Below, piece by piece: positions 10,233 through 48,750 of a DNA stretch of 64,000 nucleotides (its first letter is position 1; each line of letters starts with the position of its first letter). A program made the position numbers and the translations under genes. Source of the DNA: an uncultured bacterium (GTDB lineage: Bacteria; Patescibacteriota; Minisyncoccia; Phycocordibacterales; GWA1-40-21); NCBI GenBank assembly GCA_963716205.1, contig OY970290.1, forward strand, positions 108,906 through 172,905, written 5' to 3'. Below the pieces are notes generated by a model. The model was not told where the DNA came from, ran no database searches, and saw nothing but the letters and a program-made list of their open reading frames with translations.

Positions 10233-13645
<3,413 letters not shown>

Positions 13646-15911: not shown

Positions 15912-18900
15912 GTGATGAGACTGCAAAAAACATACAGATATACTGCATTTTCGCTGTTCGCTTTGTTTGTTTTTTTGCTTGCTTCCCGCTATGTTTCCGC
16001 TACTATTTATAATCCCGGTGAGACGCTCAATCCTGATTGCATAATGGGATCGAGTAATTGCGGAGTGGATCTTTTTTCTTCATTTATTCCTTATACCGGA
16101 GCGACAACGACCATCGATCTCAACAGTCAATTACTTACCAATGTCAGTGCTTTGAATGTTACAAGTACGACAACAATCGGTCAATCGGTCCTTATAACTT
16201 CTGGAAATCCTGATGGAATCGGTACCTCCTCTCAAGATACCGGAAGTAATTTACTTGCAGAAGGAAGTATTTATGATTTTCATATTTACTCTTATAGAAT
16301 GGTGAATGGTGTACAAGTTTTTTCTCAAAACTACACGGACATTCCATTTACTGATGATAATCTTGGCGGAACTTATAGTATTGGATTGACGTGGGACACG
16401 GTGCCGGGAGTGAGCGGATATAGAGTGGTAATCGTTCGAGATGACGAGGATGCTTATTACAGCGATCATTCAATAGATACTACAAATGATACGATTGAAT
16501 ATGATGGACTTACCGATGTTAATCCGACCAGTAATGTAAGCCCGTCTTCTTATGTGTATTCTTCCGGCGGTTTTTTACAAGTTGATGGTTCAGGCAGCAT
16601 AGCAGGCAATGTAACCATCAATAATGATCTTACGAGCGCGACAACAAAACCGGCGACCGCTCTGACCGTTTCAGGGACAATTTTTAATGATATTGGCAAT
16701 TCATCCCAGATTTCTCAGATCGCCACCACATCTGTTGGAAATGATCCGCAAGGAATTGCTATTTCCGGCAAATATTTATATGTAACGAATCAAAATGATA
16801 ACACCTTGTCTGTTGTTAATATTTCGGATCCTCATCATCCAATACAGATTGCCACAACTTCTGTTCCCAATGGTCCCAATCATATTGTTGTTTCAGGTAA
16901 TTACTTATATATAGGTCTTGATGGAGGTTCCGGTCACATTCCCACGTGTACCTCCGGAGAAGATTGTGTAGCTATTATAGATGTTTCAAATCATTTTTAC
17001 CCAATAATAACCGCTATTGTTAATGTCGGGGAGGGTCCATACGATATCGCTATTTCTGGAAAATATCTTTATGCGGTTAATAATGTTGGCCACGCCATCT
17101 CTATAACAGATATTTCAAATCCTTATAATCCTTTTAACATCGCCTCCTTATCTGTTGGAAACACACCAAACGGTATTGTTATATCCAGTCACTATGCTTA
17201 TATAACTGACACAAATAACAATGATATTTATACTGTTGATATTTCAAATCCGTATCATCCAGTGCAAATTGCCACAACCTCGGTTGGAAATAATCCTTTA
17301 GGTGTTGCGATTTCAGCTCCATATCTTTATGTAGTTAATGAAAGTGACAATGATATTTCTATTGTTGATATTTCAAATCCGTATCATCCAGTGCAAATTG
17401 CCACCACTTCCACGTTATTTGGTACTTCAATTGGCGGTGATCCTGAAAATATTGTTGTCTCTGGCCGATATGCTTATGTAACGAATCCAATCGGTAATAC
17501 TTTCTCGGTTATAGATGTTTCGAATCCTTATTATCCGATACCGATTGCTGATACTATAGTCGGAAATTCTCCAAATAATCTTGCTGTTTCAGGAAAATAT
17601 GGCTATACAGTTAATACAAATGACGGTACCATTTCAGTCATTGATCTTGGAGGTATTGATACAGGGAATCTTTCAGCCGGTGCACTTGAAGCAGGAAATA
17701 TAAATGTCGACAATAATATTGATGTTGCGGGTTCCGTAAATATCGGCACTGCGCTTTCTGTTGGAGCTGGAGGAATTCTTTCCAACGGAGATCTTTCGGT
17801 AAACGGCACAACCACCACTTCAGGCTTGAAGATTTCAAATCTTTCAAACACTTTCCTTGCAGTTGACGCAGATGGAAATGTTATAGCTGCTTCATCATCG
17901 TTTTCACGTGTTTTTATTTACGCTTCAAGTTTGCCAGGTATTCATGACAATTCAAACCTAACAACTGGTGGTGGTACGGACGATACTGCGGTTTTGCAAT
18001 CAGCCATTAATAATATTTCTTCATACGGCGGCGGAACACTCGTTATTGACGGTGTTTTTCTTGTTTCTGGTTTGGTCGTTCCAAGCAATATCACGATTGA
18101 AGGCCTCGGATGGAATACGGGCTTCTATCGATCAAACTATGCCGATGTTCCGATTATCAGAAATGCAGACCCGTCGACCACTACAGTTATGGACAAAAAC
18201 ATTCAGATGATCAACTTTGCCGTAAACGCCAACGGAGGTAATCAAAATGGTTGCCCGCTTTTGACTGAGGGTGATTACTTCGTCCAAGGTATTGCCATGT
18301 ATGGCGTAGATAATGTAACCCTCGATAATTTGCATTTCATTAATACCAACGAAGTCGTCAGCAATTTCACTGGTGCTATAGCGGGTTGTAGTGCAGATAA
18401 CGACTCAAATTATAATTACGCGTTTTTCTTTAGTAACTGGTCTAATATTACCGTTGAAAACAGTTATATTGAACAAGGTATGCTTTCCGGAAATGATGGA
18501 ATACATTTTATCGGCTCAGGAAATAACGCAATCATCAAAAATGTAAGAGGTTACAGCGGTGATGATTTCATAGCTTTTAATAGCAGTGATTATCATGACT
18601 ATTCAAGTCCTAATTCCCCTAGCTGGGTTATTGAGGATGGTCCACAATCAAACATTTTGGTTGATGGAGTTAACCTTCAGAATTCAACAGAAGGAATTTC
18701 TTTCTTGAGTGGTTACGATATCTCAAATGTTCGTGTCGAGAATATTACAGGTACAACGACTGCAGAAACCATACATTTCTGGAACTGGTATGGCGGTAGC
18801 GGTTCAGTCAAAGATATTATTTTTGACAATGTGAATGCTGTGAGCACAGGAGATTATGTTTTTAAGATGGAAGTCGGCTCGAGAATTGATAACATGCAAA

Positions 18901-21122: not shown

Positions 21123-21178
21123 TTGATAATCTGATTTTTCTGTTCTATAATACATGTGAGTATTGCCAAGATTTTCAC

Positions 21179-24100
21179 ATGAACAGCAAACAAAAATTTC
21201 TTCAAACAAAGAGATTACGATACGCACTCTATATAGTGTTTTCGCTTTTATTTGTATTTTCTCTTCAAAGAGCTTTTGCTGATATTTACGCTCCGGGAGC
21301 GACGCTTAATCCGGACTGCACCATGGGTTCGGCAAATTGCGGGATAGATTTCAGTCTTTCTTCAAGTTCAGAACCTCTTTTTCTCGCAGCTTCTTCATCC
21401 CTTCTTTCTACCACGTCTGCTTCCGCACTGTATGTTCCATATACCGGAGCGAATCAAAACATTGATATTGGAACAAATAATTTGCTTGGAGACAATGTTC
21501 TTACTCTTCAATCTCCAAACGGATTTGCGTTTTCAGGAAACGCGACCGATAGTTTGGCGTTTGATTTGAATAACAGTGAAGTATTTTCGACTTTTAATAA
21601 TAGCAGTACAAACGCGAACGGCACGATTCAAGTTAATCCGGGTGACTTTGAAGCAAATTTTAACGATGGTTCAGGGAACAATGGAAATTTAGAGGTTTCA
21701 AATACCGGTGCCAATATAGATTTTTCTGATGGGAGCAATGGCAACGGAGGTTTCAGTTTAAATTCAGACGGAATGGATTATGGTTTTGGCAGTAGCGGCG
21801 GCGGAGGGGGTTTTGAAGTAAGCCCGGCATATTTTAGTTTTGATTCCGGTGACAGCAACAGTGATGATGTTGCTATTAACGTAGACAGCAGTGAGAGCTA
21901 CTCTTCATTTAATAATGGCAACGGAGCAAGTGGAAATCTTTTTGTTAATCCGGGTGACTTTGAGGCAAATTTTAACGATGGTTCAGGAAATTCCGGCAGT
22001 TTGAATGCCGCAAACAGCGAATTTGATTATCATGCCCAGACAAGCAACGGCATCGTTTCTGGTTTTGGAGACAATCAATCCAACTTTTTTATTGAAGACG
22101 CGAGCGGTACTAATAATTTCTTCATCGATCCGAATACGAGCAAAGGAAATACCATTCTCTCATCCGCGGGGAATATTGATTTTACTTCAAATGTAAGTAT
22201 TGGATCAATGATCAATACTAGCTCGAATGATAGCGTAAGCACCAGTTCAATATTAGGAATTCTCACTCCATCGGGGGCGTATACCGCTTTCGGAGATTCA
22301 ATCACGAATGGTTCGGGAGGATCACAACAATCTAATGCATACGTCAATTTGATATCCACAGATTTGGGAGTTACCAATCTGGTCAATTATGGATATCCGG
22401 GAGATTTTGCCTGCAATGTGGCGACGGAACAAGTTTTTCCGAATGAAAATCCGAATAATACTTCCAATCCCATTTATACTTTGATGGTAGGCACGAATGA
22501 AGCTATCAATAAAGGTGCGGGATCATACGAATCAGTATATGAAGCATGCGATCAAGCATCGCTTGCATGGCTTGCTGTTCCATCAGAGAATAAAGTATTC
22601 GGTACAAGCAGTTCAGTCGTACTTGCCGGATCATGGACTAATAGCAATACCTATACAACCGGCAGAGGCACATACCCAACCGTGGGAATCCAATCATCAA
22701 CCAACGGATCGGTGGCAACATTTCCGATCACGACGACCGGCGGACCAATTTATATTTGGTATCGTATTATTGATGGCAATGGCGGAACATTCACATACCA
22801 GCTTGATGGTGGATCGGCGGTATCAGAAAATGCATTTACCAATCCGGAAGTGGATGATAATAACAATGGCAATCAAGGCATTGCGCTTGCGAGAATCACA
22901 GGAGTTTCAGCCGGTTCCCATACTATTGCAATCACGGTTACTTCAGCCACCAATTCCGGCAATCTCGTGCCTATCATTGCGGTCGGTACTGCGCCGAGTA
23001 GTATTTCTTCCGGTTCACCGAAAGTTTTTCCTAGCGGCTTGATATATTATCAGGATGACGAGCTTTCAGCCTCAACTGCGGCATATAATGCTGACGCGCT
23101 TGCCGATGCAGATTTGCTTGCGGACGACGGTCTTCCCATTTATCCGGTCAATGTAAGAAATTATTTTACTATCGCATATGATGTTTCCGGAATATTCGGC
23201 GGACCGCATCCGAATGATCTCGGACACTCTCTCATACGAGATGCTTTTGAAGCGGAGATGCTGCAAGTCGCTGAGGATCTATCGACATCAAGTGAAAACA
23301 GTCTTTCTCTTCCATCCGTTGCATTTCAAGTATCTACCACAAGCAGTGCGGATGGTGTTGCCGATTTTATTTCATCTTCCGGACAGTCCGCACTCTATAT
23401 TGGAGCCGATGGAAATATCAGTATCGGCACCACCACTCCAACCACAGCGCTTTCTGTCATCGGCACGACAACGACAAGCGGTTTGAATATTTCAAATCTT
23501 TCAAACACTTTTCTCGCCGTTGATGCAAATGGAAATGTTGTTGCGACGACGAGTCCATCAGGCGGATCATCCCAATGGGCAACAACAAGTGTTGGTGTTG
23601 GTTATGATGTCCCGGGCATTTATTATAATATCGGCAATGTCGGCATCGGCACAACAAATCCGAACGATGAGCTTGTTGTTACCGGAACATCGACAACAGA
23701 TACCGTTGCATATTTTGGCGGTAATGCTGATATAGCTGGCAATGCTGTGATCGGTAATACAAACACTCTTGCTCAAGGTTTGTTTTTACTTGTCGGTCAC
23801 AGATACGCTCCTAATCTTCAGCAGATAAACATTGAGTCAAGCGATGACGGAATAAATTTCTCCGATTTTGAGCAAAATCCTATTTGGTCAAATCCTGACA
23901 ATGATTCTCCGGCCATTGCTGCTGCCCGAGACCCGTCCATTGTCTATTATCACAATATTTATTATATGGTTTATAGCGCAATACCGTATAATGGAGGCTT
24001 TGATTCGAATACTGTTTTTGGGCTGGCGACTTCTTCTGATTTGAAAAATTGGAATTTCGTCGGGGATATTTCCGTTACCTCAATCGGGACGGTGTATTGG

Positions 24101-26731
24101 ACATGGGCGCCTAGTTTGCTTGTTGATGCAAGTGGAAATTTGCACGTTTATGTTTCAGTTGCTCCTGATGGCAGCGATTCTACGTTCAGTATTTATGAAA
24201 TGCACCCGACAAATCCAAGTGCGACAACATGGTCTGTTCCAGCTCTCATGCTTGGAACAAATAAAATTGATGCGGATACAGTTTATAACAACGGAACATA
24301 TTATCTTTGGTATAAGAATGAAACGACAAAATATATCGAATATGCAACTTCTTCCTCGCCAACCGGCCCATTCACGGTGGCAGAGACAGGTAATTGGGCC
24401 GGGTGGGGAACAGGTTTTGAAGCTCCATGTCCGGTCCAGATCAGCGCCAATGATTGGAGAATTTATCTTGATGAATATCAGAACACGTCATTTATTCATT
24501 ACAGTGATTCATACGATAATTTTGCAACATGGACTGCTCCATTGCCGATATCCACGCCAATTCCTGATTTGGACAGTGTAAGCGTCATACGATTACGTGG
24601 TATTACCCCAAGCGCCGCGCTTTCTGTCATTGGTACAACCACGACATCAGGTCTCAATATTTCAAATCTTGCGAACGGTTTTCTTGCCGTTGATGCAAAT
24701 GGAAATGTTGTTGCGACGACATCAAGCGGTTCTCAATGGACAACAAATGGCTCCAATATTTATTATACGACTGGTAATGTCAGCATTGGCACCTCAACTC
24801 CCGGTTCCGCTCTTAGTGTGGATGGCGCTATTGATGCAACATCAATATTCAGTTCCAGCATAGGACTTTTGGGAAGTTCAATGCAACCGCTCACCGCAGA
24901 TATTATTGTCGTTGGCGGTGGTGGAGCAGGCAGTTCGGGCGGTGGCGGTGGCGGTGGTTTTATTGCCACCTCAACGGAGATTTCAGATGATCCGTATGTG
25001 GTAACGGTTGGAAACGGCGGAAGTGTTACCCATGGAAATGGTTATGATTCTATTTTTGGATCATTTGATGCGGTGGGAGGAGGAGCGGGAGCGGGTATTA
25101 ACTCGGGGAGTGGAGCTAATGGCGGTTCGGGTGGTGGCGGTGGTTCTACTTGCGGCGGTGGCCCAGTATCCGCTGGTGGTTTGGGAACAACAGGTCAGGG
25201 AAATAATGGTGGAAGTGCAGCTGCCGGAAATTGCATTGTGCCTTATACATCAGGCGGCGGCGGCGGAGCTGGAGCGGCGGGTCAAAATTCAACAGCAACC
25301 ACGAACGGAAACGGTGGAATCGGAACTACAAGTTCGATTACGGGAACCGTTACTTATTATTCAGGCGGCGGCGGCAGCGGAGATTATTACGGAACAGAAC
25401 CGTTCGGAACAGGCGGTCTTGGCGGCGGCGGCAATGGCGGAAATCCGGCAACGGCAGGAACGGCAAACACCGGCGGCGGCGGCGGCGGAACTATCAACGG
25501 CGGCACATCAGGCAATGGAGGTTCCGGTGTCGTTATAATAAAATACTTAACTTCCGCAGATGGCGATGGAACCGGAGGTATAATCACTCATGTCGGCGGT
25601 TACACCATTCATACATTTACATCAAGCGGAATATTCACACCTCCGCCCCCAAGTCCGGTAATATACAATATTACCTTAGACAACAATTTGTTCAGTTTTG
25701 AAAACGGAATCTCAGCACCGAATCTTGCTGTCGGCACAACATCGTCACCGATCACCCAATTCGATGTTTATGGTTCAAGTACAAATGATCTTGCCAACTT
25801 TGCTTCCTCTTCGGGACAATCCATTCTTTATATTACTTCGACCGGTAAAGTCGGCATCGGCACCACCACACCATCAGCTACTCTAACTATCGTCGGCAAT
25901 CCCGCAAGTACAACATTAAGACTTGCCAATTTCGGCGCAGGAACTCTCATGACCGACAGTCTTGGAAATGTCTATGATAATTCTGATGAACGATTAAAGA
26001 ATATTATCGGTACCTCAACCATCGGTCTTAACGAACTCGAAGGATTAACTCCCATCAACTACTATTGGAATGCCACCTCCGGTCTTGATATGACAGATGA
26101 AAACACCGGCTTTTCCGCACAGAATGTAGAGCAATATATTCCAAACGCAGTCGCCACCGATACACGAGGCTACTTAACTCTTCAAGATCGTCCGATCATT
26201 GCGGCACTTGTCAATGCGGTGAAAGAAATCGGATCGTTCATCAGTACTATCACGGACGGTATTGCACATCTCACCGGTATTGCTATCGGCACTTCCGACA
26301 AACCGGAAGGGATTACGATGTATAGTCCGAGTGGAAATGCATTTTGTATACAAGTTTCAGATACCGGACTGATTCAAAGTTCATCGGGAGAATGCAGCAA
26401 TGCAACCTCGACAATTTCTACCGCTTCAGTTGTTTCTTCAATCAGTCAAGCTTCTGATTCTTCAAATACATTAGCTACATCCACAGCTTCAACATCGGAT
26501 AATGTATTGCAGTCATCATCAACATCGGATGATGCAAGTTCTTCCGTTGCAACAACTTCCGATCAAGATACACCGGCAACTTCAACAAATACTACACTAA
26601 CTTCACCTATTGCAACAAGCACATCGGATCAAGCGACAACAACTTCCGATACTGATATAATCGCAACAACGTCTGAAAGCGCGACTTCGCCATCTGATAC
26701 CACGGATGCCGCGACAAGCACAGGTCAGTAA
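21179..26731 (+). CDS. giant secreted fibre-like protein 2 (1850 aa)
   Basis: Same N-terminal motif ([22 protein letters not shown]). SGNH hydrolase blocks: [14 protein letters not shown] and NDLGH (nt about 22250-23250). A GH43-like five-bladed propeller: [23 protein letters not shown] (nt about 23820-24570). A poly-Gly region (about 24900-25560). An S74-like C-terminal chaperone module nearly identical to that of protein 1, followed by a Ser/Thr-rich tail. Confidence 0.85.
25851..26323 (+). repeat. 473-nt block encoding the intramolecular-chaperone module, copy B
   Basis: See copy A. The offset between the copies is exactly 5600 nt. Confidence 0.85.
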
Positions 26732-29060: not shown

Positions 29061-30209
29061 TCACATTGAATACATCGCGATAGTCTTTTCAATCATAGTT
29101 TTCAGACTGAATTCGAAGTCGATTTTTTTCTTCAGTTTTTTGCCGAAAATTTCTATTTTTTTGCGGTTTTCCAAAACGTATTCTATCGCCCGCTGTATTT
29201 CTTCTGAACTTTTCGATCGTATGAGGATTCCTGTTTCGTTATTTTCTACAATTTCCGGTATGCCGCCGACATTACTGGCAATGATAGGCAGTTCGGCGGC
29301 GCCGGCTTCAAGAAGTGCATAGGGAAGCGCTTCAGTCACGGAAGTTAGGGTGAACATATCAAAAGCTTTCAGATACATTGAAGCAGATTCGATTCTTCCG
29401 AGTAAGAATATTTTTTGTTCGACTTTCAATCTGCGGATCAATTGTTCCAAATTTTTCTTTTCCTCGCCGTCTCCAATGACGGTGAAAACAACATTCGGTA
29501 TTTTTGCAATCGCCTTCATGGCGAAGTTCAAACCTTTTGTTTTATGAAGCTCGGATATCGTGCCGATCCAGACCGGATTTTTTGAAAATATTTCCGCGGC
29601 GCTTGGATTTTCGCTAAGTATTTTTTGCGACAAGAACTCCCGGGCCAAAGTTTTCTCTTCAAAATCAATGGGTCGCAAGCCATTCCGTATGACAATCATT
29701 TTTTTATTCCATGGTTTGCCGATTTGATCATATGTTATTTTTGATACGGCGACCGTCTGGTGGGCAAGGAGGATAGTAAGAATATGGAAAAATCTCGCAA
29801 ATATTTTTTGCCACCACGGTCTATCTTCATTAAAAGCCCAGCCGTGCCCAGTGAAAATTATTTTTTTAATACCAACGATCCTTCCGACAAACGCTCCCAT
29901 ACCGCCCATTTTGGAGCTGTTGAGATGGATGATATCCGGTTTTTCCTTTTGAAAAATATGGAAGAGCTCAAAAAATAATCCGAATTCTTTCAGTATGTTG
30001 ATATTCCGTTGTGAATTTTTCAGTGGAATTGTTTTAACTCCGGCTTCATCAAGCTTTTTTTTCAGCTCGCTGCTGCCGCCGAGAAGGACAGAGACCTCAA
30101 ACTGTTCTCTCGGAATATTCGTGGCAATGTCATAGACATATTTTTGCGCTCCACCCCAATTTGATTTGGTGATGCAGATGAAAACCTTCTTTTTCGACTG
30201 TTCGGTCAT
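29061..30209 (-). CDS. glycosyltransferase family 4 (GT-B)
   Basis: EALPYALLEAGAAELPIIASNVGGIPEIV is the E-x7-E GT4 motif. Typical length of 382 aa. Confidence 0.75.
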   Translation of the reverse strand: MTEQSKKKVFICITKSNWGGAQKYVYDIATNIPREQFEVSVLLGGSSELKKKLDEAGVKTIPLKNSQRNINILKEFGLFFELFHIFQKEKPDIIHLNSSKMGGMGAFVGRIVGIKKIIFTGHGWAFNEDRPWWQKIFARFFHILTILLAHQTVAVSKITYDQIGKPWNKKMIVIRNGLRPIDFEEKTLAREFLSQKILSENPSAAEIFSKNPVWIGTISELHKTKGLNFAMKAIAKIPNVVFTVIGDGEEKKNLEQLIRRLKVEQKIFLLGRIESASMYLKAFDMFTLTSVTEALPYALLEAGAAELPIIASNVGGIPEIVENNETGILIRSKSSEEIQRAIEYVLENRKKIEIFGKKLKKKIDFEFSLKTMIEKTIAMYSM

Positions 30210-30257
30210 GAGCTTCCATTATATAAAAAAAATGCTACAATTTCTAGCACATAATTT

Positions 30258-31610: not shown

Positions 31611-31656
31611 AAATCCTGTTGCAAAATATCGAAAAATAGTTATACTAAAACGCATT

Positions 31657-33045
31657 ATGATCAAGAGAAGATTCTGGGCAGTTGTCCTCATACTGGTTGC
31701 CGCACTTATCGGATATTTTGTCTATGCAACGCAAAAAAATCCTTCATCGAATTTTCCATTCCGGCTCGGTCTTGATCTCGACGGCGGAACAGAGCTTGTC
31801 TACAAGCCGGATCTTTCAAGCACTTCGACAGTTCCAACGGATTTGGCGAGTTCAATGAGTGTTCTTCGCGATGTTATTGAGCGAAGAGTCAATACGTTCG
31901 GCGTTTCCGAGCCGGTCGTTCGTGTTGAGCAAGTAGGCTTTACCGGTTCATCCGACAACGAACAGCTGATCGTCGATCTTCCCGGAGTGACCAATATCGA
32001 TCAAGCGGTTGCTATGATCGGCGCCACACCAACACTTGATTTCCGACTTCTCGCATCAAGCTCCACCAATTTTACCGAAGCTCAATTGCAGGCGGAAATC
32101 GCATCGACGAGCATGGACAGCGTTTTTATTCCGACCGGTTTGACCGGAGAATATCTAGAGAGTTCACAGCTTCAGTTTGATCCGACATCCGGCGAGCCGG
32201 AAGTTTCGCTTCAGTTCAATTCAAAAGGCGCGGATCTTTTTGCAAGCATTACCAAAAACAATGTCGGCAGAAAACTTGCGATTTTCCTCGACGGATACAT
32301 GGAATCTTTGCCGACCATTCAGGAAGAAATCGACGGCGGACAAGCGGTCATCTCCGGCGGCTTTACCGGAAGTACCGGCATCAAAGATGCGCAAAGCTTG
32401 GTGAACAATCTTAATCTTGGCGCTCTTCCGATTCCGATTCAGCTTATTTCAACGCAGACGGTCGGCGCATCGCTCGGACACGACGCAGTCCAAGCTTCGA
32501 CGAAAGCCGGCATCATCGCGTTTATTGTCATTGCAATTTTCCTCATTTTGATTTACCGGTTGCCGGGGTTGCTCGCGGTCATCGCACTTTGTATTTACAC
32601 GATCATCAACTTGGCGATTTTCAAATTGATTCCCGTGACGCTCACTTCCGCCGGCATTGCCGCATTCATTCTTTCCGTCGGTATGGCAGTCGATGCAAAC
32701 ATTCTTATTTTTGAAAGAATGAAAGAAGAATTCAGAAGGGGACGGGAAATCGGCGACGCGGTCTCCGAAGGTTTCCACAGAGCATGGACATCGATCCGTG
32801 ATTCGAATATTTCCTCGATGATTACAGCAGTCATTCTTTATATGTTTTCAAGCACGTCAGTTGTAAAAGGTTTTGCACTCGTCTTCTTCATTGGCGTTGC
32901 CGTTTCCATGTTCACTGCGATCACCGCATCAAGAACTCTGCTTCTTGCGATCAAACACGATCACGCGGGCAAATTTCTAAAATGGCTTTTTGGCGGTTCA
33001 ATGAAAAATCCGGTTAGCACAGAAATTAACACGAACAAAAAATAA
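31657..33045 (+). CDS. secD: protein-export membrane protein SecD
   Basis: SecD periplasmic-domain motif RLGLDLDGGTELVYK and C-terminal transmembrane bundle. The track ORF starts at 31597 and overlaps the previous gene. ATG 31657 follows a TATACT box by about 10 nt. Confidence 0.8.
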   Translation: MIKRRFWAVVLILVAALIGYFVYATQKNPSSNFPFRLGLDLDGGTELVYKPDLSSTSTVPTDLASSMSVLRDVIERRVNTFGVSEPVVRVEQVGFTGSSDNEQLIVDLPGVTNIDQAVAMIGATPTLDFRLLASSSTNFTEAQLQAEIASTSMDSVFIPTGLTGEYLESSQLQFDPTSGEPEVSLQFNSKGADLFASITKNNVGRKLAIFLDGYMESLPTIQEEIDGGQAVISGGFTGSTGIKDAQSLVNNLNLGALPIPIQLISTQTVGASLGHDAVQASTKAGIIAFIVIAIFLILIYRLPGLLAVIALCIYTIINLAIFKLIPVTLTSAGIAAFILSVGMAVDANILIFERMKEEFRRGREIGDAVSEGFHRAWTSIRDSNISSMITAVILYMFSSTSVVKGFALVFFIGVAVSMFTAITASRTLLLAIKHDHAGKFLKWLFGGSMKNPVSTEINTNKK

Positions 33046-34075: not shown

Positions 34076-34103
34076 TTGACTTCACTCTTGTTATGAGTAT
34101 AAT
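34076..34103 (+). promoter_or_regulatory. 16S rRNA promoter TTGACT-16-TATAAT
   Basis: Consensus -35 and -10 hexamers about 290 nt upstream of the 16S 5' end. Confidence 0.6.
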
Positions 34104-34394
34104 AGCAAAGCTGTCTTTTAATAAGGATACGCCATTTTTTTTCACTAAAAAACGGCGATATCCAACGTTGTTTTCTTAAATAACATTTAGGAGGCAGTGT
34201 TCATTTACAACCGAATAGTACAAGATTTAAAGATACATCATTTTTTACATGAGAATGATGTATGAGATAGTGCGAGTCTAGTCTCAAACTCTAAAATCGT
34301 TTCAAGTGAATTAAATAAATGAATTATAGAAATATTATTTTTTATTTTGTTCCGTTTCCGAAACAAATAATTCTTCAAAAGATTATTTTATTTT

Positions 34395-35900
34395 AGAGTT
34401 TGATCCTAGCTCAGGATGAACGCTGGCGGCGTGGATAGGGCATGCAAGTCAAGGGGACCGCAAGGTCACCGGCAGACGACATAGTATAAAATAGGTAACG
34501 ACCCCAAAAGTCAGGAATAGCTCGTCGAAAGACGGGGTAATACTTGATGGTCTGCATTTTCGCAAGAAGGTGCAGTAAAGATTTATCGCTTTTGGATCGG
34601 CCTGTTCGGTATCAGCTAGTTGGTAGGGTAATGGCCTACCAAGGCTATGACGCCTAGGGGAGCTGAGAGGCTGACCCCCACCGATGGGACTGAGACACGG
34701 CCCATACACCTACGGGTGGCTGCAGTCGAGAATATTCGACAATGGAGCGAAAGCTCTGATCGAGCGACGCCGCGTGGAGGATGAAGTCCTTCGGGACGTA
34801 AACTCCTTTTGTGAGACGAATAAGTTATTGAATGGTCTAAGAATAAGAGGTTGCTAAACTCGTGCCAGCAGCAGCGGTAATACGAGTGCCTCAAGCGTTA
34901 TCCGGAATTATTGGGCGTAAAGGGTGTGTAGGTGGTTTTGTTAGTCTTCTGTTAAATCTCTGGGCTTAACCCAGAGCATGCAGGGGAAACGGCAAGACTT
35001 GAGAGTATGCGAGGGGTCTGTGGAACTCATAGGTGTAGCGGTGAAATGCGTTGATATTATAGGGGAACACCAAAAGCGAAGGCAGCAGACTGGAGCATTA
35101 CTGACACTGAAACACGAAAGCGTGGGTAGCGAATGGGATTAGATACCCCAGTAGTCCACGCCCTAAACGATGTTCTCTAGGTTTTCGGAGTATCGACCCT
35201 CTGAGAGCCACAGCTAACGCGTTAAGAGAACCGCCTGGGTAGTACGACCGCAAGGTTAAAACTCAAAGGAATAGACGGGGACTTGCACAAGCGGAGGATC
35301 ATGTGGTTTAATTCGACGGTAAACGAAGAACCTTACCAGGGTTTGAAACCTAGCTGAAGTCTAGGTAGAAACATTTGACGTCTCACAAGGACAGCTAGGC
35401 AGGTGATGCATGGCCGTCGTCAGTTCGTGGTTTGAATTGTTCCCTTAAGTGGGGTAACGAACGCAACCCTCGTTGTCTGTTATATATGTCAGGCGAGACT
35501 GCCCAGCCTTTTGGATACGAAGTTCACGCTTCGCGGACAAGAGGCTGGGAGGAAGGTGAGGATGACGCCAGGTCAGCATGTCCCTTTGATACCCTGGGCT
35601 ACACACGTGATACAATGGCACGTACAACGCGATGCGACGCAGTAAGCTGGAGCAAATCGTAAGAAAGCGTGCCCAAGTTCGGATTGAGGTCTGCAACTCG
35701 ACCTCATGAAGCTGGAATCGCTAGTAATCGCGGGTCAGCCATACTGCGGTGAATACGTTCTCAAGTCTTGTACTCACCGCCCGTCAACTCAAGGGAGCTG
35801 GGAATACCCGAAACCAGCGCTTGTCGCTGTCTACGGTAAGTTCGGTGACAGGGAGTAAGTCGTAACAAGGCACGGCTAGCGGAAGCTGGTCGTGGAATTT
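34395..35900 (+). rRNA. rrs: 16S ribosomal RNA
   Basis: Starts AGAGTTTGATCCTAGCTCAG. Internal landmarks: GTGCCAGCAGCAGCGGTAATAC, ATTAGATACCC, AAACTCAAAGGAATAGACGG, GTACTCACCGCCCGTCA. The 3' region reads AAGTCGTAACAAGG followed by a helix 45 CACGGCTAGCGGAAGCTGGTCGTG and then GGAATTTTTC. No CCTCC was found, so the 3' end is uncertain. Confidence 0.9.
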
Positions 35901-36099
35901 TTCAAATCGAACACGCTATCGTCTGGAAGTTTCTAGATAGATGCTGATCGGTCGGTTTTCAATGCCTCAATTGAGCATTGAAAAGGTTGTATGTTCCTTC
36001 ATAACATACTATGCAGTGGGAAAGACTACACAAAGTCCGCCTTCGGGCGGACTAGGAAACGGAACAAAATAAAGAATGATATTTAGTATACAAAAAACA

Positions 36100-36133
36100 G
36101 GTGCATCCGAAGGGGTGCACCTGTTTTTTGTAT
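36100..36133 (+). terminator. rho-independent terminator in the 16S trailer
   Basis: CAGGTGCATCCGAAGGGGTGCACCTGTTTTTTG. It is preceded by two further hairpins: CAATGC..GCATTG, and GTCCGCC-TTCG-GGCGGAC with a UUCG loop. Confidence 0.6.
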
Positions 36134-36210
36134 GCAATTTTTGAAATGGACTTTTTATTTTTCTTATGGTAATTTTATTCTCGAACGTTATTTCAAAGAA
36201 AGAGGTTTTG

Positions 36211-36368
36211 ACATGAATCATACAAATATTGCTGCGAACATAAAAACAGCATGTGAGCTCTTTAAAAAAAAAGAACCAAGGAGTAAAGATTTTTCCATAG
36301 TCTTGTTTTCAGCTTTAGTAGCGATAGTTTTTATTATTATTGCTATTTATCATATTTTTGCCAAATAA
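36211..36368 (+). CDS. small hypothetical membrane protein (52 aa)
   Basis: AAAGAGGT lies 7 nt before ATG 36211. The product ends in a hydrophobic helix (IVLFSALVAIVFIIIAIYHIFAK). The track ORF starts at 36132 and overlaps the terminator. Confidence 0.3.
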
Positions 36369-36497
36369 AATCTTTCGTTTTTCTAAAGAAAGCAAATCAG
36401 GAGATACTTGACAAATATGATATATATGCGATAATTAACACTAGAGAAAAATAAGCCATTCTCTTCAACATTATCTCGACACTTTGGAGGATTGGAA

Positions 36498-36641
36498 ATG
36501 TTCAATGCAAGCATGATTTTGAGAAAAGGTATCAAATTCTGTAACAGGCTCGATAATCAGTTCCACTTGTGGTGTAGCAAATTATCGCCGGTGGGTATCG
36601 CTGCCGTTATTGTTATTTTGATCATGTTGTTGCTTCGATAA
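36498..36641 (+). CDS. small hypothetical membrane protein (47 aa)
   Basis: GGAGGA lies 7 nt before the ATG. The product MFNASMILRKGIKFCNRLDNQFHLWCSKLSPVGIAAVIVILIMLLLR has one C-terminal transmembrane helix. It is not in the ORF track because it is shorter than 60 aa. Confidence 0.35.
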   Translation: MFNASMILRKGIKFCNRLDNQFHLWCSKLSPVGIAAVIVILIMLLLR

Positions 36642-36728
36642 ATTTTTTTAAAGCGGTGCGCTCTCGGTTTACCGGGGGCGCTTTTTGTTTGTATTTTGCA
36701 TAATTTTTTGCTATATTTCGGTTTGTCT

Positions 36729-36852: not shown

Positions 36853-36934
36853 GGGCATGTGGTGGAACTGGTATACACGTACGCTTCAGAAGCGTATTCC
36901 GCAAGGATTGAGGGTTCGAGTCCCTCCATGCCCA
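36853..36934 (+). tRNA. tRNA-Leu (anticodon CAG), type II with a long variable arm
   Basis: Acceptor GGGCATG/CATGCCC; anticodon stem TACGC/GCGTA with loop TTCAGAA; long variable arm; T-arm GAGGGTTCGAGTCCCTC; discriminator A. CCA is not fully encoded. Track ORF 36767..37072 is spurious. Confidence 0.75.
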
Positions 36935-38580
36935 CAATCAGCGATGAATCGGCTTTGTAAGGCTTCAAATCCGTTTCTACACTTATATCCCAACGTATTT
37001 TCAGAAAGGGAAAGTTCGGAAAAAATTACCTTTACCATTTCGGCTTTTTCTTCTGAATTAGCCAGTTTGTAATATTCATAGCCATTTTTTAAGAGTTCGG
37101 AAAGTTTTATAATATCCTTTATTACTTCATGCATTGCAATATCTGAAATTTGCTCGGCATCTTGAAAGGTAACGAGCTCATTACTCAATTTATTTTCTTC
37201 ATCTAAAAATGCCTCGGGGGAGTATACACCACTTTTCAGTAAGGTAAGTTTATTAGTTCTTAGATAAGTAAGGTCTTCTCGCACTTTCTTTTTTCTTCTA
37301 TCGTTCTGTTCAATTTCTTTCAATCTTTTATTTTCAAAGGTTGTAATATCGTTTTTAGTCCTAGCATCTATTTCCGCAAGTTCAGCATCAGTAAAAGAAA
37401 GATTTGATATAAGCTCACCAACTTTTTCTTCAAGGAAGTTGAGATTGAAATTTTTCTTTGTATTATCACACCCTTTTGGACAACGAGTACCAAAATAAAG
37501 AATTCCTTTGCGAGTGTAGGGTGTATAGAGACGTTCGCAAACAGAACAGCGAATCATTCCTCTGTGAATATGCTTTATTTTGTCTGTGTAATACAAACTA
37601 GTTTTCTTTTTCTTTAACATCAATTGGACATTCTCAAACAACTCATCAGATATTAATGCCTCATGACTTACACTTGTTAGCCAGACACCTTCATTACCCA
37701 ATATTCTGCCGGTATAGAATTTATTACTCAAGATTTTCTGAAGACTATTAGCCTCTATAATTTTAGATACTTTTTCTTTATTTATTTTCTCGTCATCATC
37801 TTCGGCAAGCATTTCCTCCTTTGTTCTCCTAGGACGCATTGGATTAGTGGTGAATCCTTGTTCTGTTGCATATCGTGCAAGGTCGGCCAAAGACCAGTCA
37901 CCATTAGAATACATTTCGAACATCTTTTTTATAATTGGTGCTCTTATGGGGTCGAATGGCTTATGTTCCATTGTTCCTTCATTTAAGTAGCCTATGGGGG
38001 CTTTGTAAGTGCATACGCCTTTATTTCTCAAGTTCCACGTAGCAATGGTTACTTTCTCACTCGTAACCCTTGAATGGTGTTCTGCAAACATTCCATCTAT
38101 ATCCATGTGTAGTGCACCAGAGCTAGATTTATCATAAGTAGCATAAACAAAATGGACATCAACACCGCTTTTCATAAGTTTTCGTATAATAGTATCATCG
38201 CCTTGATTTCTGCTAATCCTATCCCAAGAAAAACAAATAAAACCTTTGAATAAACCTTTACTCAAAAATTGAACAAGTTTAAAAAATTTTGGTCGTTCTA
38301 TGTGGTACTGGACTGAACCATTTTCAGTAAATGTGAGAACATCATCTGTTTTGAATCCAGAATGTTTTTCAGAAATTATTCCATCAGTGCAAAAACCAGT
38401 AATGGTTAACGGGGCTATGTTGAACCTGTGATTAAAAGCATATTTTGTGTTTTCTGCTTTTTGAATTTTGATTGAATTTTTTTGGTTATCAGCCTCGTCA
38501 GTACTTTTTCGATTATAAATCAAATAATATTCCCTATATTTGCCACTATCAATTTCTTTTAAGATTTTTTCATCAATCAT
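36886..38580 (-). CDS. large serine recombinase (resolvase/invertase catalytic domain, recombinase domain, zinc ribbon and coiled coil)
   Basis: N-terminal YLIYNRKSTDEADNQKNSIKIQ (catalytic Ser in the Y-x-R-x-S-T motif). WDRISRNQGD (the SR motif). C-terminal CSVCERLY...RCPKGC zinc ribbon. The last about 16 codons are read from the complement of tRNA-Leu. Confidence 0.8.
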   Translation of the reverse strand: MIDEKILKEIDSGKYREYYLIYNRKSTDEADNQKNSIKIQKAENTKYAFNHRFNIAPLTITGFCTDGIISEKHSGFKTDDVLTFTENGSVQYHIERPKFFKLVQFLSKGLFKGFICFSWDRISRNQGDDTIIRKLMKSGVDVHFVYATYDKSSSGALHMDIDGMFAEHHSRVTSEKVTIATWNLRNKGVCTYKAPIGYLNEGTMEHKPFDPIRAPIIKKMFEMYSNGDWSLADLARYATEQGFTTNPMRPRRTKEEMLAEDDDEKINKEKVSKIIEANSLQKILSNKFYTGRILGNEGVWLTSVSHEALISDELFENVQLMLKKKKTSLYYTDKIKHIHRGMIRCSVCERLYTPYTRKGILYFGTRCPKGCDNTKKNFNLNFLEEKVGELISNLSFTDAELAEIDARTKNDITTFENKRLKEIEQNDRRKKKVREDLTYLRTNKLTLLKSGVYSPEAFLDEENKLSNELVTFQDAEQISDIAMHEVIKDIIKLSELLKNGYEYYKLANSEEKAEMVKVIFSELSLSENTLGYKCRNGFEALQSRFIADCGHGGTRTLNPCGIRF

Positions 38581-40503: not shown

Positions 40504-41260
40504 AAATAGTTTTATTTAATTTTATTTTCAACTTCTTTTACATAAACAAAAAAGGAGGTCCTCTGACCCCATCATTGAAAAAAATATTCGACCAAAGCTT
40601 TGCAGGGGATGATAATGTATTAAATCCCCAATTCTTTATATTAATCTTAATGTTGTGTGTCAGAGGTCTAACGTTATGAACCCCTAATCAATTGCAAACT
40701 GTAAACGAACTTGTATATGTATTATAACATAATCCTTGACAGAATGCAAGGACTATTATCAAAAATATGTATCTTTATGCCAATATTTTGGTAGTATATA
40801 TTATTATACCCTTATTTATAGGCATATTTTAAAAATAATAGGAAAATACCTTTGAGATATATTATACAATAAAATAACCCCTTGACAGAGCTAAAAAGAC
40901 CATTTTTACCTAGATAAGGTCATTTTAATTGGTGTGAACATGTGAACTTTGTGTACATTGTACAGGTAGCTAAAGTGATAAAAGTTTCACTTTCTCCATA
41001 AAAAATATTTACCGCAAAAATACCAATATATCCAACAAAATTAGGCTTTTATTTGAATCTGGACATTGTATATTTGAACTATTTGATAGGTTAACTTTAA
41101 ATAATTCTTTTCCCTAATAAAACCCTCTCGGGGGGTATGTTGTTTAAATATTCTTTTTTGGTGCTATAATTAGCTGACAATTGAATAAGAAGTAATCTAA
41201 ACTAGCGAGTAATTGCTAGCATGATGAAAGGAAACCGATAAAGGATAAAAAACCCATCAT
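40504..41260. promoter_or_regulatory. AT-rich divergent control region of the element
   Basis: Two CTTGACAGA -35-like boxes (about 40733 and 40881). A TGAAC direct-repeat cluster (GTGTGAACATGTGAACTTTGTGTACATTGTACAGG, about 40930-40965). A TGcTATAAT box at about 41162. Confidence 0.4.
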
Positions 41261-41365
41261 ATGGGGCTTTACCTTTATCGGTCATATCGGGAAACTGGTA
41301 TGGATAGCGCAAGCTATCACCCATGTGGTGGGCTTTTTGTGTTTAAAAATTTAATCAAAATAATT

Positions 41366-45954: not shown

Positions 45955-45985
45955 CTCAATTTTTATTTTCGTGTAGTATAGGAAT

Positions 45986-46663
45986 ATGAAAAAATTCTAT
46001 GTCATTGGAACACCGATAGGGAACTTGGAAGATATCACGTATCGCGCAGTGCGAGTTTTTGGTGAAGTCGATCTGATCCTTTGCGAAGATACCCGAGTGA
46101 CGGCAAATCTTTTAAATAAATACAGCATCAAAAAGCCGACCATGAGCTATCATTCGCAAAGCAAGATTGCAAAACTTGAAAAAATAATCGAAATAATTGC
46201 CAATGGAAAAACACTCGCACTTGTTTCTGATGCCGGCACACCAACGATTTCTGATCCGGGCTCAATGCTTGTTTCAAAAATTCGGGAAAATTTTCCCGAC
46301 GTTGAAATCATTGTAATTCCGGGACCGAGCGCGCTGACCTCGGCACTTTCAATTTCTGGACTTCCGGGATCGGAATTTCTTTTCTTAGGATTTTTGCCGC
46401 ACAAAAAGGGAAGGGAAACGCTGTTCAAAGAAATTGCCGCGTCAGAACGAACGGTGGTGTTTTATGAATCTCCGCACCGAATATTGAAATCTCTCGAATT
46501 TTTGAAAAAATATGTCGTAGATCGAAAAGTTGTCATTGCACGGGAACTTTCCAAAATATATGAGCAGATTATTTCCGGCACGCCGACCGAAATTGAGAAC
46601 TATTTCAAAGACAATGCGGACAAAGTCAGGGGAGAATTTGTCGTCATGGTCAGCGCAAAATAG
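45986..46663 (+). CDS. rsmI: 16S rRNA (cytidine1402-2'-O)-methyltransferase RsmI (tetrapyrrole-methylase fold)
   Basis: MKKFYVIGTPIGNLEDITYRAVRVFGEVDLILCEDTRVTANLL...VSDAGTPTISDPG is the characteristic RsmI N-terminal region. Confidence 0.8.
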   Translation: MKKFYVIGTPIGNLEDITYRAVRVFGEVDLILCEDTRVTANLLNKYSIKKPTMSYHSQSKIAKLEKIIEIIANGKTLALVSDAGTPTISDPGSMLVSKIRENFPDVEIIVIPGPSALTSALSISGLPGSEFLFLGFLPHKKGRETLFKEIAASERTVVFYESPHRILKSLEFLKKYVVDRKVVIARELSKIYEQIISGTPTEIENYFKDNADKVRGEFVVMVSAK

Positions 46664-46700
46664 GATTTATTTTCATTTTATATTGTGCTAAAATAGCCCT

Positions 46701-46937
46701 ATGATAAAAATTTCAACGATTTTCGGGCTTGGTATACTGGTGATATTTACCCAATTTTTAGGATTGCCGATCGGCTGGAAAGATTTTATTTATATTTTTT
46801 CCGGGCTTTGCATCACTGTTTTATCAATGCTCATACGGCGGGAACTGCTTGATGTTCTCAAACAAATGCACACTGGACCTGTAAATACTGAAACATTTTC
46901 AGAGAGCAAGCCGCAACAAAACCAGCCTGAACAATAA
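46701..46937 (+). CDS. small membrane protein (78 aa, two transmembrane helices)
   Basis: ORF with two hydrophobic helices, followed by the terminator AAAACTCCCGCAAGGAGTTTTTT (46936..46958). Confidence 0.4.
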   Translation: MIKISTIFGLGILVIFTQFLGLPIGWKDFIYIFSGLCITVLSMLIRRELLDVLKQMHTGPVNTETFSESKPQQNQPEQ

Positions 46938-46977
46938 AACTCCCGCAAGGAGTTTTTTGTGGTATAATATTTCCCAA

Positions 46978-48750
46978 ATGGATCCCGAAAGAATCACATA
47001 TTTTGGCGAGACTGATTCGCGCAATAAGCGGGTAAAATTTGGCATTAAAGCCAAAGACAGGACCAAGCATATCTATGTCATAGGAAAGACCGGCATGGGA
47101 AAATCCACCGTTCTTGAAAATATGGCCATTCAGGATCTTCAAAATGGCGAAGGAATGGCATTTATCGATCCGCACGGCAACACTGCTGACAAACTCTTGA
47201 ATTATGTTTCCGCGGAAAGAATACATGACGTCGTGTATTTTGCTCCGTTTGATACCGATTATCCAATTTCATTCAATGTCATGGAAGATGTCGGTCCGGA
47301 CAAGCGGCATCTCGTCGTTTCGGGTTTGATGAGTGCGTTCAAGAAACTTTTCGGCGAGGAAAGCTTTTCCGATCGTATGCAGTATATTTTGCAAAATACC
47401 ATTCTTGCGCTTCTGGAATATCCGGGAGCGACGATGCTCGGCATCAACAAAATGTTGACAGACAAAGTGTACCGAAACAAAGTTATTGCCAATGTTACCG
47501 ATATGTCGGTCAAGGCGTATTGGACGCAGGAATATGCAAATTACACTGAACGTTTTGCTCAGGAAGCGATACCGGCAATTCAAAACAAAATCGGACAGTT
47601 CACTTCAAATCCTCTTATCCGTAATATCATCGGTCAGCCGAAATCGAGTTTTGATTTCAGGAAAATCATGGATGACGGCAAAATCATGATTATTAATCTT
47701 TCCAAAGGCAGAGTCGGCGAATCAAATGCCAATCTGCTCGGCTCGATGCTCATCACCAAAATTTATCTTGCGGCGATGTCCCGTGCCGACATATCGGAAA
47801 AAATATTGAAAAATCTTCCGAATTTTTATCTGTATGTGGATGAATTCCAGTCGTTTGCCAATGAATCGTTTGCGGATATTCTTTCGGAAGCCAGAAAATA
47901 TAAACTCAATCTGACCGTGGCGCACCAATATATCGAGCAGATGGCGGAAGAAGTCCGTGCGGCGGTTTTCGGCAACGTCGGCACGATGATTACATTTCGC
48001 GTCGGCGCATACGATGCCGAAGTGCTTGAGAAAGAATTTGCGCCGCAGTTCACCGCGGAAGACTTGGTCAATCTTGGAATCTACCAGATGTATCTGAAGC
48101 TTATGATAAATGGCGTCAGCTCGTTTCCATTTTCAGCGACTGGACTCCCGCCATTTCCCGAGCCGGTTATCTCCTACAAAAAAGAGATTATTGAAAGTTC
48201 CCGGAAGCAATTTGCTGTGCCAAAAATCGAAGTTGAAGGCAATATCCAAAAATGGCATGACGAAAGCAAGCCCGCGCCGAAAATCACAATTCAGCCGAAG
48301 CCATCAATTATGGCAAAAGAGATTCCGAAAAATTTTGAAATAAAAACACCAGTGCCGCCGGCTATCGCAAAAGAAAAACCCGTTTTGAAAGAAATAAAAA
48401 AATCAGTTGAAGAAAATGCGCGTAAAACAATGCCGATTCGTCCGCCGATTGAAACGGAAGTCGGGGAAGATTTTCTGCCACTCAAAGATTTTGCCAAAAA
48501 ATCCGTTTCTCGCAGCCAGAATAAATCAATGAGCAATGAAAATCTTTCGGATTTGAGATATGCTCTCGCTGCGGCGATGAAACAGAAATCGTCAGAAGCA
48601 TCAAAGCCGGAAGAAAAACTAATTACCGAAAAATCTGAAACGGTAGTGAAAGAGAAATCAGAACAGAAAAAAGAAGAACCGAAACAGCCGCATGGACTGA
48701 AGGAAATTTCCGAGCATGATTTAAAAAATATTTTCGGTTCTGAAGAATAA
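46978..48750 (+). CDS. FtsK/HerA/TraD-superfamily P-loop ATPase (paralogue of 5545..8322) with a Lys/Glu-rich C-terminal tail
   Basis: Walker A VIGKTGMGKSTVL, then IDPHGN, YLYVDEFQ and ARKYKLNLTVAHQYIEQ, collinear with the ATPase half of the first paralogue. The track start at 46957 is TTG; ATG 46978 follows a GGTATAAT box by 10 nt. Confidence 0.6.
   Translation: MDPERITYFGETDSRNKRVKFGIKAKDRTKHIYVIGKTGMGKSTVLENMAIQDLQNGEGMAFIDPHGNTADKLLNYVSAERIHDVVYFAPFDTDYPISFNVMEDVGPDKRHLVVSGLMSAFKKLFGEESFSDRMQYILQNTILALLEYPGATMLGINKMLTDKVYRNKVIANVTDMSVKAYWTQEYANYTERFAQEAIPAIQNKIGQFTSNPLIRNIIGQPKSSFDFRKIMDDGKIMIINLSKGRVGESNANLLGSMLITKIYLAAMSRADISEKILKNLPNFYLYVDEFQSFANESFADILSEARKYKLNLTVAHQYIEQMAEEVRAAVFGNVGTMITFRVGAYDAEVLEKEFAPQFTAEDLVNLGIYQMYLKLMINGVSSFPFSATGLPPFPEPVISYKKEIIESSRKQFAVPKIEVEGNIQKWHDESKPAPKITIQPKPSIMAKEIPKNFEIKTPVPPAIAKEKPVLKEIKKSVEENARKTMPIRPPIETEVGEDFLPLKDFAKKSVSRSQNKSMSNENLSDLRYALAAAMKQKSSEASKPEEKLITEKSETVVKEKSEQKKEEPKQPHGLKEISEHDLKNIFGSEE

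Follow-up and report, generated by a model that had tools for sequence, protein, structure and literature searches.

A Paceibacteria-type 16S rRNA lacking the anti-Shine-Dalgarno core, and −10 boxes close to start codons in the same genome

Pairing between the Shine-Dalgarno (SD) sequence of a messenger and the anti-SD sequence at the 3′ end of 16S rRNA is the textbook route of start-site selection in bacteria. How are starts chosen when the 16S rRNA gene seems to end without the anti-SD core CCUCC? The question is raised by a stretch of 64,000 nt (the window) from an uncultured bacterium of the Patescibacteriota (assembly GCA_963716205.1, contig OY970290.1, positions 108,906 to 172,905 of the forward strand), for which a first-pass annotation had reported a 16S tail lacking CCUCC and many genes of leaderless appearance. 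The answer reached here, which is considered probable, is that the window carries a 16S unit of the Paceibacteria type within the candidate phyla radiation (CPR), in a lineage that has lost CCUCC throughout and makes no use of SD sites, with leaderless starts at promoter-proximal genes and SD-independent initiation inside operons. A very large bacterial radiation without the rRNA half of the SD pair amounts to a natural experiment on SD-free initiation.

The 16S rRNA 3′ end in the window and its relatives

In the alignment to the Rfam bacterial small-subunit covariance model RF00177, positions 34388–35907 (+ strand) form a full-length 16S rRNA, matching model positions 1–1533 with 1289.6 bits (gathering score 50) and without truncation. 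Helix 45 lies at 35871–35894 and consists of 10 bp with a GGAA loop (CACGGCUAGC-GGAA-GCUGGUCGUG); it is preceded by AAGUCGUAACAAGG, and the model alignment is intact over 35857–35894. The same helix is 100% paired across 63 distinct relatives, and 4 of its pairs show compensatory changes. The 13-nt tail that follows (35895–35907) reads GAAUUUUUCAAAU, where the consensus of the 3′ model alignment is GAUcACCUCCUUu; downstream of helix 45, the bacterial GAUCACCUCCUUA / GAUCACCUCCUUU is replaced by this sequence, and UUUCA (35900–35904) occupies the position of CCUCC. CCUCC, which is near-universal in this tail and not required for membership of RF00177, is missing, and the gene fits the description used by Lim (2012) and Amin (2018), namely an identifiable helix 45 followed by a tail without anti-SD-like sequence. 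The covariance-model alignment, a check that the first-pass annotation had itself named, bears out its claim, and it is confirmed that the anti-SD core is absent from the gene sequence near the predicted 16S 3′ end. Its statement that no CCTCC occurs within 300 nt after the 16S also holds: after helix 45 there is none on the + strand before 36923, and that copy is inside tRNA-Leu. The longer CACCTCC is found in the window solely within coding or 23S sequence, and a permissive-threshold Rfam search of tail and trailer gave weak chance matches on the terminator only.

The tail recurs in other assemblies. A scan of metagenomes of the Joint Genome Institute for the exact pattern of the helix 45 3′ strand and the first 11 tail bases returned 7 independent contigs, whose 16S sequences are 86–95.5% identical to that of the window; the tail GAAUUUUUCAAAUCGAACACG is identical in 6 of the 7, and the seventh differs by two C-to-U changes. 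Genomes, one per species, were also scanned with a pattern blind to the tail, made up of AAGTCGTAACAAGGCA, the GGAA loop and the pairs that close helix 45. Of the 120 loci returned, 64 lack the motif (a tail without CTCC or UCCU), 52 carry it and 4 show close variants, for example CUCCU. The best genome matches are 80–82.5% identical over the full length of the 16S, and those with names are Candidatus Taylorbacteria, Paceibacterota and Paceibacteria; all closest matches with the helix-45 type of the window (at most 82.5% identity) are motif-less, and the window 16S is affiliated with the Parcubacteria/Paceibacteria. The motif-less loci with lineage names include Taylor-, Kaiser-, Nomura-, Zambryski-, Jorgensen- and Nealsonbacteria, 'Paceibacterota' and 'Minisyncoccia', and the motif-bearing loci include Magasanik-, Uhr-, Falkow-, Moran-, Kerfeld-, Yanofsky- and Doudnabacteria together with true Saccharibacteria. 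CCTCC is present at most 300 nt downstream in only 4 of 62 motif-less relatives, at scattered positions. Because the same tail occurs in independent contigs, 64 related genomes are motif-less and no displaced CCTCC is found in the trailers, the comparison indicates that the anti-SD loss is a clade trait and not an artefact, which excludes the assembly error or 3′-terminal insertion that the first-pass annotation had kept as a caveat.

According to Tsurumaki et al. (RNA 2022, PMC9297842), the anti-SD motif CCTCCT is detected at the 3′ end of the 16S in no more than 48% of Parcubacteria, and the motif-less Parcubacteria overlap with the lineages without uL1. The anti-SD-less 16S of Parcubacteria is already published, and the window is another case of it: the trait and the radiation are the same, and the nearest 16S relatives of the window are motif-less Parcubacteria/Paceibacteria. 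The rplK-rplA locus, where uL1 would be encoded, lies outside the 64 kb. The loss was previously known only as a motif count, since PMC9297842 gives motif presence or absence and the uL1 overlap only; what took the place of the motif, SD usage, the spacing between promoter and start, and the trailer are the additions made here, in the form of a covarying hairpin as replacement, SD-free genes, and a leaderless-type promoter signature that is about three times as common in motif-less as in motif-bearing lineages. For practical annotation, gene finders built on SD models will misplace starts in motif-less genomes, and 16S 3′ ends annotated by means of CCUCC will fail; the predictions are accessible in metatranscriptomes or in the few cultured Paceibacteria co-cultures.

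Signals upstream of the start codons

Genes were called as the longest non-overlapping open reading frames (ORFs) of at least 100 aa, beginning at the first ATG near the ORF start, with rRNA masked. AGGA, GGAG or GAGG precedes none of the 40 window genes so defined, whether counted at −18 to −4 (0/40) or ending 4–10 nt upstream (0/40), and control offsets give 1–5. With identical gene calling, GGAGG or AGGAG ending 4–10 nt before the start is counted 23 times in the motif-bearing loci, against an expectation of 2.4, and not once in the window; in this 64-kb sample, no SD enrichment is found upstream of the ORFs. The upstream regions of the window are A-rich (up to 62–67% at −11/−10) and G-poor (2–17%). 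Some motif-less relatives (L108 at 1946–7464, L016, L058, L079, L105 and L121) retain strong SD-like motifs at canonical spacing ahead of a small number of genes, mostly ORFans.

The first-pass annotation had described the SD picture as mixed, on account of good motifs at ORFs 9007, 36498 and 45535. These motifs are present, and the small ORF 36213 has one as well. The mixed picture is nevertheless ascribed to chance: SD-like 5-mers that stand before the ATG of an ORF of at least 40 aa number 2 each in the window, no more than the 1–9 obtained with permuted 5-mers, and the motif at 45535 is not kept in L128, the only related locus with a recognisable homologue (31% identity), where the upstream sequence is just GAAAGG. 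In L122 and L124, the corresponding place is taken by ORFs that show no clear relationship to 45535, and a Pfam scan of ORFs 9007 and 45535 gave no matches. Residual SD use at these small ORFs was rejected.

Meanwhile, promoter-like boxes are concentrated close to the start codons. Among 23 promoter-proximal window genes, a −10 hexamer (at least 5/6 matches to TATAAT) ends 5–9 nt upstream of the start codon in 7, where control offsets average about 1.2, and 5–12 nt upstream in 10, where they give 1.8. The extended −10 test counts TGnTAnnnT ending 5–11 nt before the start, with the expectation taken from other offsets. It gives 7 of 40 genes in the window (1.5 expected, p = 9e-4); 40 of 276 genes in the motif-less loci, 22 of them at exactly 6 nt (4.8 expected, p = 2e-23); and 11 of 240 genes in the motif-bearing loci (3.3 expected, p = 7e-4). 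Between motif-less and motif-bearing loci, the extended −10 counts differ by a factor of 3.5 (Fisher p = 1.7e-4). A transcript that starts at the start codon needs a hexamer whose end is separated from the A of ATG by 6 nt. GeneMarkS-2 defines leaderless 'group C' genomes by a Pribnow box 6–8 nt before the start (PMC6028130), and the window has −10 boxes at about this distance before a sizeable fraction of its operon-first genes. In addition, orthologues keep the distance between box and ATG as the spacer sequence changes (7–9 nt for the HerA-like ATPase, 6 nt for rsmI, 10 nt for secD); several boxes follow terminators or sit in divergent intergenic regions; and N-terminal comparisons back the starts of rsmI, secA, secD and the glycosyltransferase. 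Leaderless initiation for many genes, as the first-pass annotation had suggested, is supported statistically by the peak of boxes 6 nt before starts and by the spacing kept in orthologues. In the literature searched, nothing specific was found on leaderless translation or genes in CPR, and no report was found of an excess of leaderless-type promoters in motif-less over motif-bearing lineages.

At the level of single genes, a candidate leaderless start on the + strand is that of adk (3063–3080), where TGCTATACT is separated by a 6-nt spacer from ATG 3078 and a terminator hairpin stands before it. Boxes are also found at a beta-lactamase-family gene (5500–5518, − strand; TGATAAAAT, 7-nt spacer, ATG 5502) and at a TraG/HerA-like ATPase gene (5525–5547, +; TGATATAAT, 11-nt spacer, ATG 5545), the latter with a predicted leader of ~4–5 nt. 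Similarly, TATAAT with an 8-nt spacer precedes ATG 30209 of the glycosyltransferase gene (30207–30223, −), TATACT with a 10-nt spacer precedes ATG 31657 of secD (31641–31659, +; equal spacing in L128), and TAGTAT with a 6-nt spacer precedes ATG 45986 of an rsmI-like methylase gene (45974–45988, +), whose spacing is kept in L124 and L128 and whose start is fixed by a Pfam TP_methylase match from residue 3. Further boxes on the + strand are those of a 78-aa ORF (46686–46703; TGCTAAAAT, 6-nt spacer, ATG 46701), of the HerA-like ATPase gene (46960–46980; TGGTATAAT, 9-nt spacer, ATG 46978; orthologues in L122, L124 and L128) and of secA (60692–60711; TGCTATGAT, 8-nt spacer, ATG 60709). The near-start boxes listed by the first-pass annotation are thus recovered at 6–11 nt for adk 3078, 5545, secD 31657, 46978 and secA 60709, and a box at this distance also precedes 42883, where its list has 42862; those claimed for 58504 (boxes 16 and 31 nt upstream) and 43756 (no convincing box) are not upheld, and boxes 6–11 nt before ATG at 5502(−), 15915, 30209(−) and 46701 were absent from its list. 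The two TraG/VirD4/HerA-like ATPase genes (5545–8322 and 46978–48750) both have an extended −10 near the start, and the second stays beside rsmI in relatives.

A mechanism can be proposed from these observations. Because the lineage has lost the CCUCC core, its 30S subunit would be unable to choose starts by SD pairing, and the genes carry no SD. At promoter-proximal genes, an extended −10 placed 6–11 nt before AUG would make the transcript begin at the start codon or within a few nucleotides of it, and the 5′-terminal AUG of such a leaderless mRNA would be recognised by the ribosome with initiator tRNA. At operon-internal genes, where 15 of 31 same-strand junctions are at most 25 nt and 3 overlap, the short or overlapping junctions suit re-initiation; together with A-rich, G-poor, unstructured upstream sequence, they would permit re-initiation or SD-independent binding as in Bacteroidia.

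Structure in the tail and the trailer

The tails of the motif-less relatives are not random AU-rich sequence; examples are GAAUAAUUCAAUUUGAAA, GAUUAAUUCCAAUUGGA, GAUUAACUCAAAUUGAG and GAGUAUGUCAAUUGAC. In these relatives, tail positions 7–10 pair with a segment 3–7 nt further downstream. Counted without any alignment, a 3-bp core at tail positions 7–9 can pair in 40 of 61 distinct tails (17.5 ± 3.4 in shuffles, with a maximum of 26) and a 4-bp version in 25 of 61 (5.5 ± 2.2 in shuffles), and other registers are far lower. A covariance-model alignment, built from 17 ungapped sequences and applied to 67, has the four pairs of the hairpin 92% paired, all four with two-sided changes (slid controls 22–61%), and 29 compensatory cells compared with 4.5 ± 1.9 in shuffles; the alignment-free count matters because this alignment leans towards structure. 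A MAFFT alignment of the tails, which put the 3′ halves of the hairpin out of register, was discarded in favour of the register-free counts and the covariance-model alignment. G-U pairs occur in the hairpin, which implies pairing at the level of RNA rather than DNA. In 23 of 39 tails of motif-bearing CPR, against 2.7 expected, CUCC at the equivalent positions pairs with GGAG or GGGAG lying downstream, which suggests that the anti-SD may be masked in the precursor of the motif-bearing 16S; in anti-SD-keeping loci such as L013, L018 and L027, the CUCC core is followed by UUUCUAGGGAG, which is able to pair back. Judging from these tails, the hairpin appears to predate the loss of the motif and to have persisted while its sequence drifted.

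In the window itself, the tail can form a weak 3-bp version of the clade hairpin (35901–35911, +; UUC, AAAUC loop, GAA), which competes with the base of trailer helix A. This weighs against extending the clade hairpin to the window, as the two structures overlap and helix A is favoured by both the fold and the consensus structure; moreover, the tail is invariant in the window's own family, and there is no covariation there to choose between them. It has been reported that ablation of the anti-SD in F. johnsoniae impairs rRNA processing independently of translation (PMC13000453), an effect that would fit a maturation role for the tail hairpin. The covariation and this analogy point to a tail region under selection for structure, with a possible role in pre-16S folding or 3′-end maturation; no report of a covarying tail hairpin was found in the literature searched. 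A bolder reading, which is rather doubtful, would make the 16S 3′ end a structured element (the mini-helix, possibly together with some or all of the trailer helices) that is retained in the mature 30S or acts as an obligatory maturation checkpoint and has co-evolved with the leaderless shift, the Paceibacteria then having clade-wide SD-free translation on a remodelled platform.

The 16S is unlinked from the 23S-5S genes (10296–13858, same strand, 20.5 kb upstream) and forms a single-gene transcription unit. A sigma-70-type promoter at 34076–34103 (+), TTGACT-16-TATAAT with 11/12 matches, is the best promoter-like site of the region. The leader strand at 34330–34359 (+) forms 30 uninterrupted pairs with the trailer strand at 36055–36084 (+), a duplex of −39.5 kcal/mol; such long complementarity flanking the 16S is present also in the relatives L125 and L128, and the helix is presumed to be an RNase III substrate that would be cleaved during processing. 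The trailer between the end of the 13-nt tail and this helix measures 147 nt, and the RNA downstream of the 16S folds at −109.7 kcal/mol (z = −10.9 compared with shuffles). Helix A (35906–35952, +), with a conserved base and a variable apex, is present in the minimum free energy fold, and RNAalifold of 8 relatives gives compensatory changes in its apex and a C-to-U change opposite G in its base. Helix B (35956–35984, +; 12 bp, apex CUCAAUUGAG) is near-invariant in relatives; in L123 and L127, 3 of its pairs show compensatory changes. Helix C (35989–36009), a hairpin with a GAAAGA loop (36016–36029) and helix D (36034–36053), all on the + strand, each have pairs kept through two-sided changes. 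The unit is closed by an intrinsic terminator (36086–36135, +) with a 20–23 bp stem and then a T run. The first-pass annotation had described three hairpins ending in a terminator; the terminator is retained, and in place of three hairpins folding gives five helices and the strand of the processing helix. The RNAalifold consensus of the 8 trailers contains 56 pairs, 18 of which are preserved through changes on both sides, and among the 86–95% identical relatives the conservation of the tail and helix B equals that of mature rRNA.

No report of a structured, conserved trailer of ~150 nt leading up to a 30-bp processing helix was found in the literature searched. A long structured trailer was considered as a hallmark of motif-less lineages and rejected: a crude duplex search gave 105 vs 18 nt, and a stricter search for uninterrupted runs gave 161 vs 112 nt (p = 0.013); long trailers are therefore general in CPR. 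The apex of helix B, CUCAAUUGAG, is close to the Nomurabacteria-type 16S tail hairpin CUCAAAUUGAG (L030, L039 and L099), from which it differs by one loop base. Downstream of the unit, the segment 36132–36700 contains two small hydrophobic ORFs at 36214–36369 (preceded by AAAGAGG) and 36499–36642 (preceded by GGAGG). The second stands behind a promoter match at 36408–36435 (11/12 plus TG, one of the two best in the scanned 28.5–48.4 kb) and is followed by a terminator at 36658–36681, just upstream of tRNA-Ile; instead of a gene, its region could represent a small RNA or the leader of a tRNA. The tRNA-Ile(GAU) gene is reached past these two small ORFs and the second terminator.

Alternative explanations, known systems and other features

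Several observations weigh against the proposed combination of SD-free, partly leaderless initiation. Every mechanistic step is read from DNA, and with 64 kb of the genome in view there is room for a second 16S copy. The motif-less relatives show a weak residual SD-like signal when pooled (GGAGG/AGGAG 12 vs 3.2 expected). Gene starts follow a crude rule, and that of adk is ambiguous, as ATG 3129 fits the Adk N-terminus better and the Pfam ADK match begins at residue 23. The window spacings are spread over 6–11 nt without a peak at 6, and some window transcripts may carry leaders of 1–5 nt. Finally, matches to two-hexamer promoters are not enriched over shuffles in the AT-rich window (62 vs 59.4), for which reason the extended −10 motif with positional controls was used in place of a two-hexamer scan. 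The last point also favours a different account of the boxes, in which they would belong to an AT-rich translation-initiation region on leadered mRNAs, recognised independently of SD in the manner of Bacteroidia (S1-type binding). The A-rich, G-poor upstream regions of all genes, operon-internal ones included, agree with this account, and in Bacteroidia SD-independent leadered initiation is reported to serve the whole genome (PMC7797042, PMC13000453). An AT-rich enhancer, however, would require neither a fixed TG nor a fixed distance, and TGnTAnnnT peaks at exactly 6 nt (22 of the 40 matches in motif-less loci), several boxes lie behind terminators or in divergent intergenic regions, and it is the spacing and not the spacer sequence that is conserved among orthologues; leadered initiation is accordingly regarded as unlikely, although it is the strongest of the competing accounts.

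The remaining alternatives concern the tail itself. That it results from misassembly, from a chimeric join or from a 16S gene that is truncated or pseudogenised could be suspected since motif-less 16S is rare in cultured bacteria and a short-read assembly of the same organism (L001) ends just before the 16S gene; the full-length model match, the tail and homologous trailer in 7 contigs from different metagenomes, the 64 related genomes that are alike, and the compensatory changes in helix 45 and the trailer helices reduce the chance of this to almost nothing. CPR genomes usually have a single rRNA gene set, which counts against a second, motif-bearing 16S. Such a copy, or an rRNA fragment elsewhere in the genome, or an insertion separating helix 45 from a displaced anti-SD, might be expected from the frequent insertions in CPR rRNA genes (PMC9297842), the trailer of 147 nt and the limited part of the genome visible. 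A displaced anti-SD or detached 3′ fragment was rejected as a candidate, as the + strand is free of CCTCC from helix 45 to 36923, the CACCTCC copies all lie inside genes or 23S, and the relatives' trailers are likewise without CCTCC; taken as a whole, this explanation is very improbable. Equally slight is the prospect that the U-rich tail acts as an altered anti-SD, which would recognise A-rich upstream sequences in a shifted SD/anti-SD pair. The A-rich upstream regions, the UUUUU of the window tail and the AAAA-type motifs reported in three organisms without anti-SD (Amin et al., PMC6107228) speak for it, but the duplex of the tail with the 25 nt upstream of each start, at −2.03 kcal/mol, does not improve on control regions (−2.46) or on shuffles of the upstream sequence (−2.09 ± 0.24), relatives with different tails have equally A-rich leaders, and a tail on its own genes gives −2.50, close to the −2.21 of another locus's tail on the same genes and to the −2.46 of control regions. 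This candidate was rejected on the duplex energies.

Mammalian mitochondria have a small-subunit rRNA without anti-SD and mRNAs that are leaderless or nearly so; the likeness to the proposed state of the window is an analogy only, as mitochondria are organelles that use dedicated factors and have no −10 promoters of the bacterial kind. Among bacteria, the anti-SD is also missing from some Flavobacteriia (Chryseobacterium, Elizabethkingia, Riemerella, Blattabacterium), Mycoplasma species and Candidatus Carsonella (Lim 2012; Amin 2018, PMC6107228). These resemble the window in having helix 45 followed by a 13-nt tail without CCUCC, in the lack of upstream SD enrichment and in their clustering by clade (PMC6107228), and differ in being independent losses in unrelated phyla, for which a leaderless-type promoter signature is not described in the literature examined. 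The 'SD-blind' ribosomes of Bacteroidia such as Flavobacterium johnsoniae (PMC7797042, PMC13000453) share genome-wide SD-independent initiation, A-rich upstream regions and an anti-SD region that matters for rRNA processing. Their anti-SD, however, is present, sequestered by bS21, bS18 and bS6 and used for rpsU autoregulation, whereas in the window, whose 16S has no canonical anti-SD, the sequence itself is lost. Actinobacteria and Deinococcus-Thermus, which belong to group C (PMC6028130), have the Pribnow box 6–8 nt before operon-first genes in ~25–50% of operons, to be compared with 7–10 of 23 promoter-proximal genes in the window. Unlike the window, group C retains the anti-SD and SD sites for leadered or internal genes; the latter are found at 0 of the 40 window genes of at least 100 aa.

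Other features of the window were recorded as well. The ribosomal cluster at 227–3008 encodes L18, S5, L15 and SecY, with no room for L30 (uL30) between S5 and L15, which is a CPR hallmark; S5 has 231 aa with an N-terminal extension of ~60 residues, and a terminator and a promoter lie between secY and adk. The 23S gene (10296–13646) is 3351 nt long vs 2925 nt in the model, with insertions of, for instance, ~31 nt after 10584, 23 nt after 10647 and 52 nt after 10941, and a 107-aa ORF (12778–13101) lies inside it. At 15912–26731, two giant genes lie side by side (1736 and 1850 aa); they encode LVIVD repeats, a glycine-rich domain and a Peptidase_S74 (endosialidase chaperone) domain, and their products are probably surface or attachment proteins. 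The segment 36886–45400, adjoining tRNA-Leu(CAG) (36853–36935), is likely an integrated mobile element; it contains a large serine recombinase (36886–38580, − strand), ~8 kb of ORFs without Pfam matches and a LOOT RNA (41194–41318, 88 bits). In L128, tRNA-Leu is followed within ~65 nt by the homologue of ORF 45535 and then by rsmI and the HerA-like gene, and in L124 the order is similar, with an unrelated ORF.

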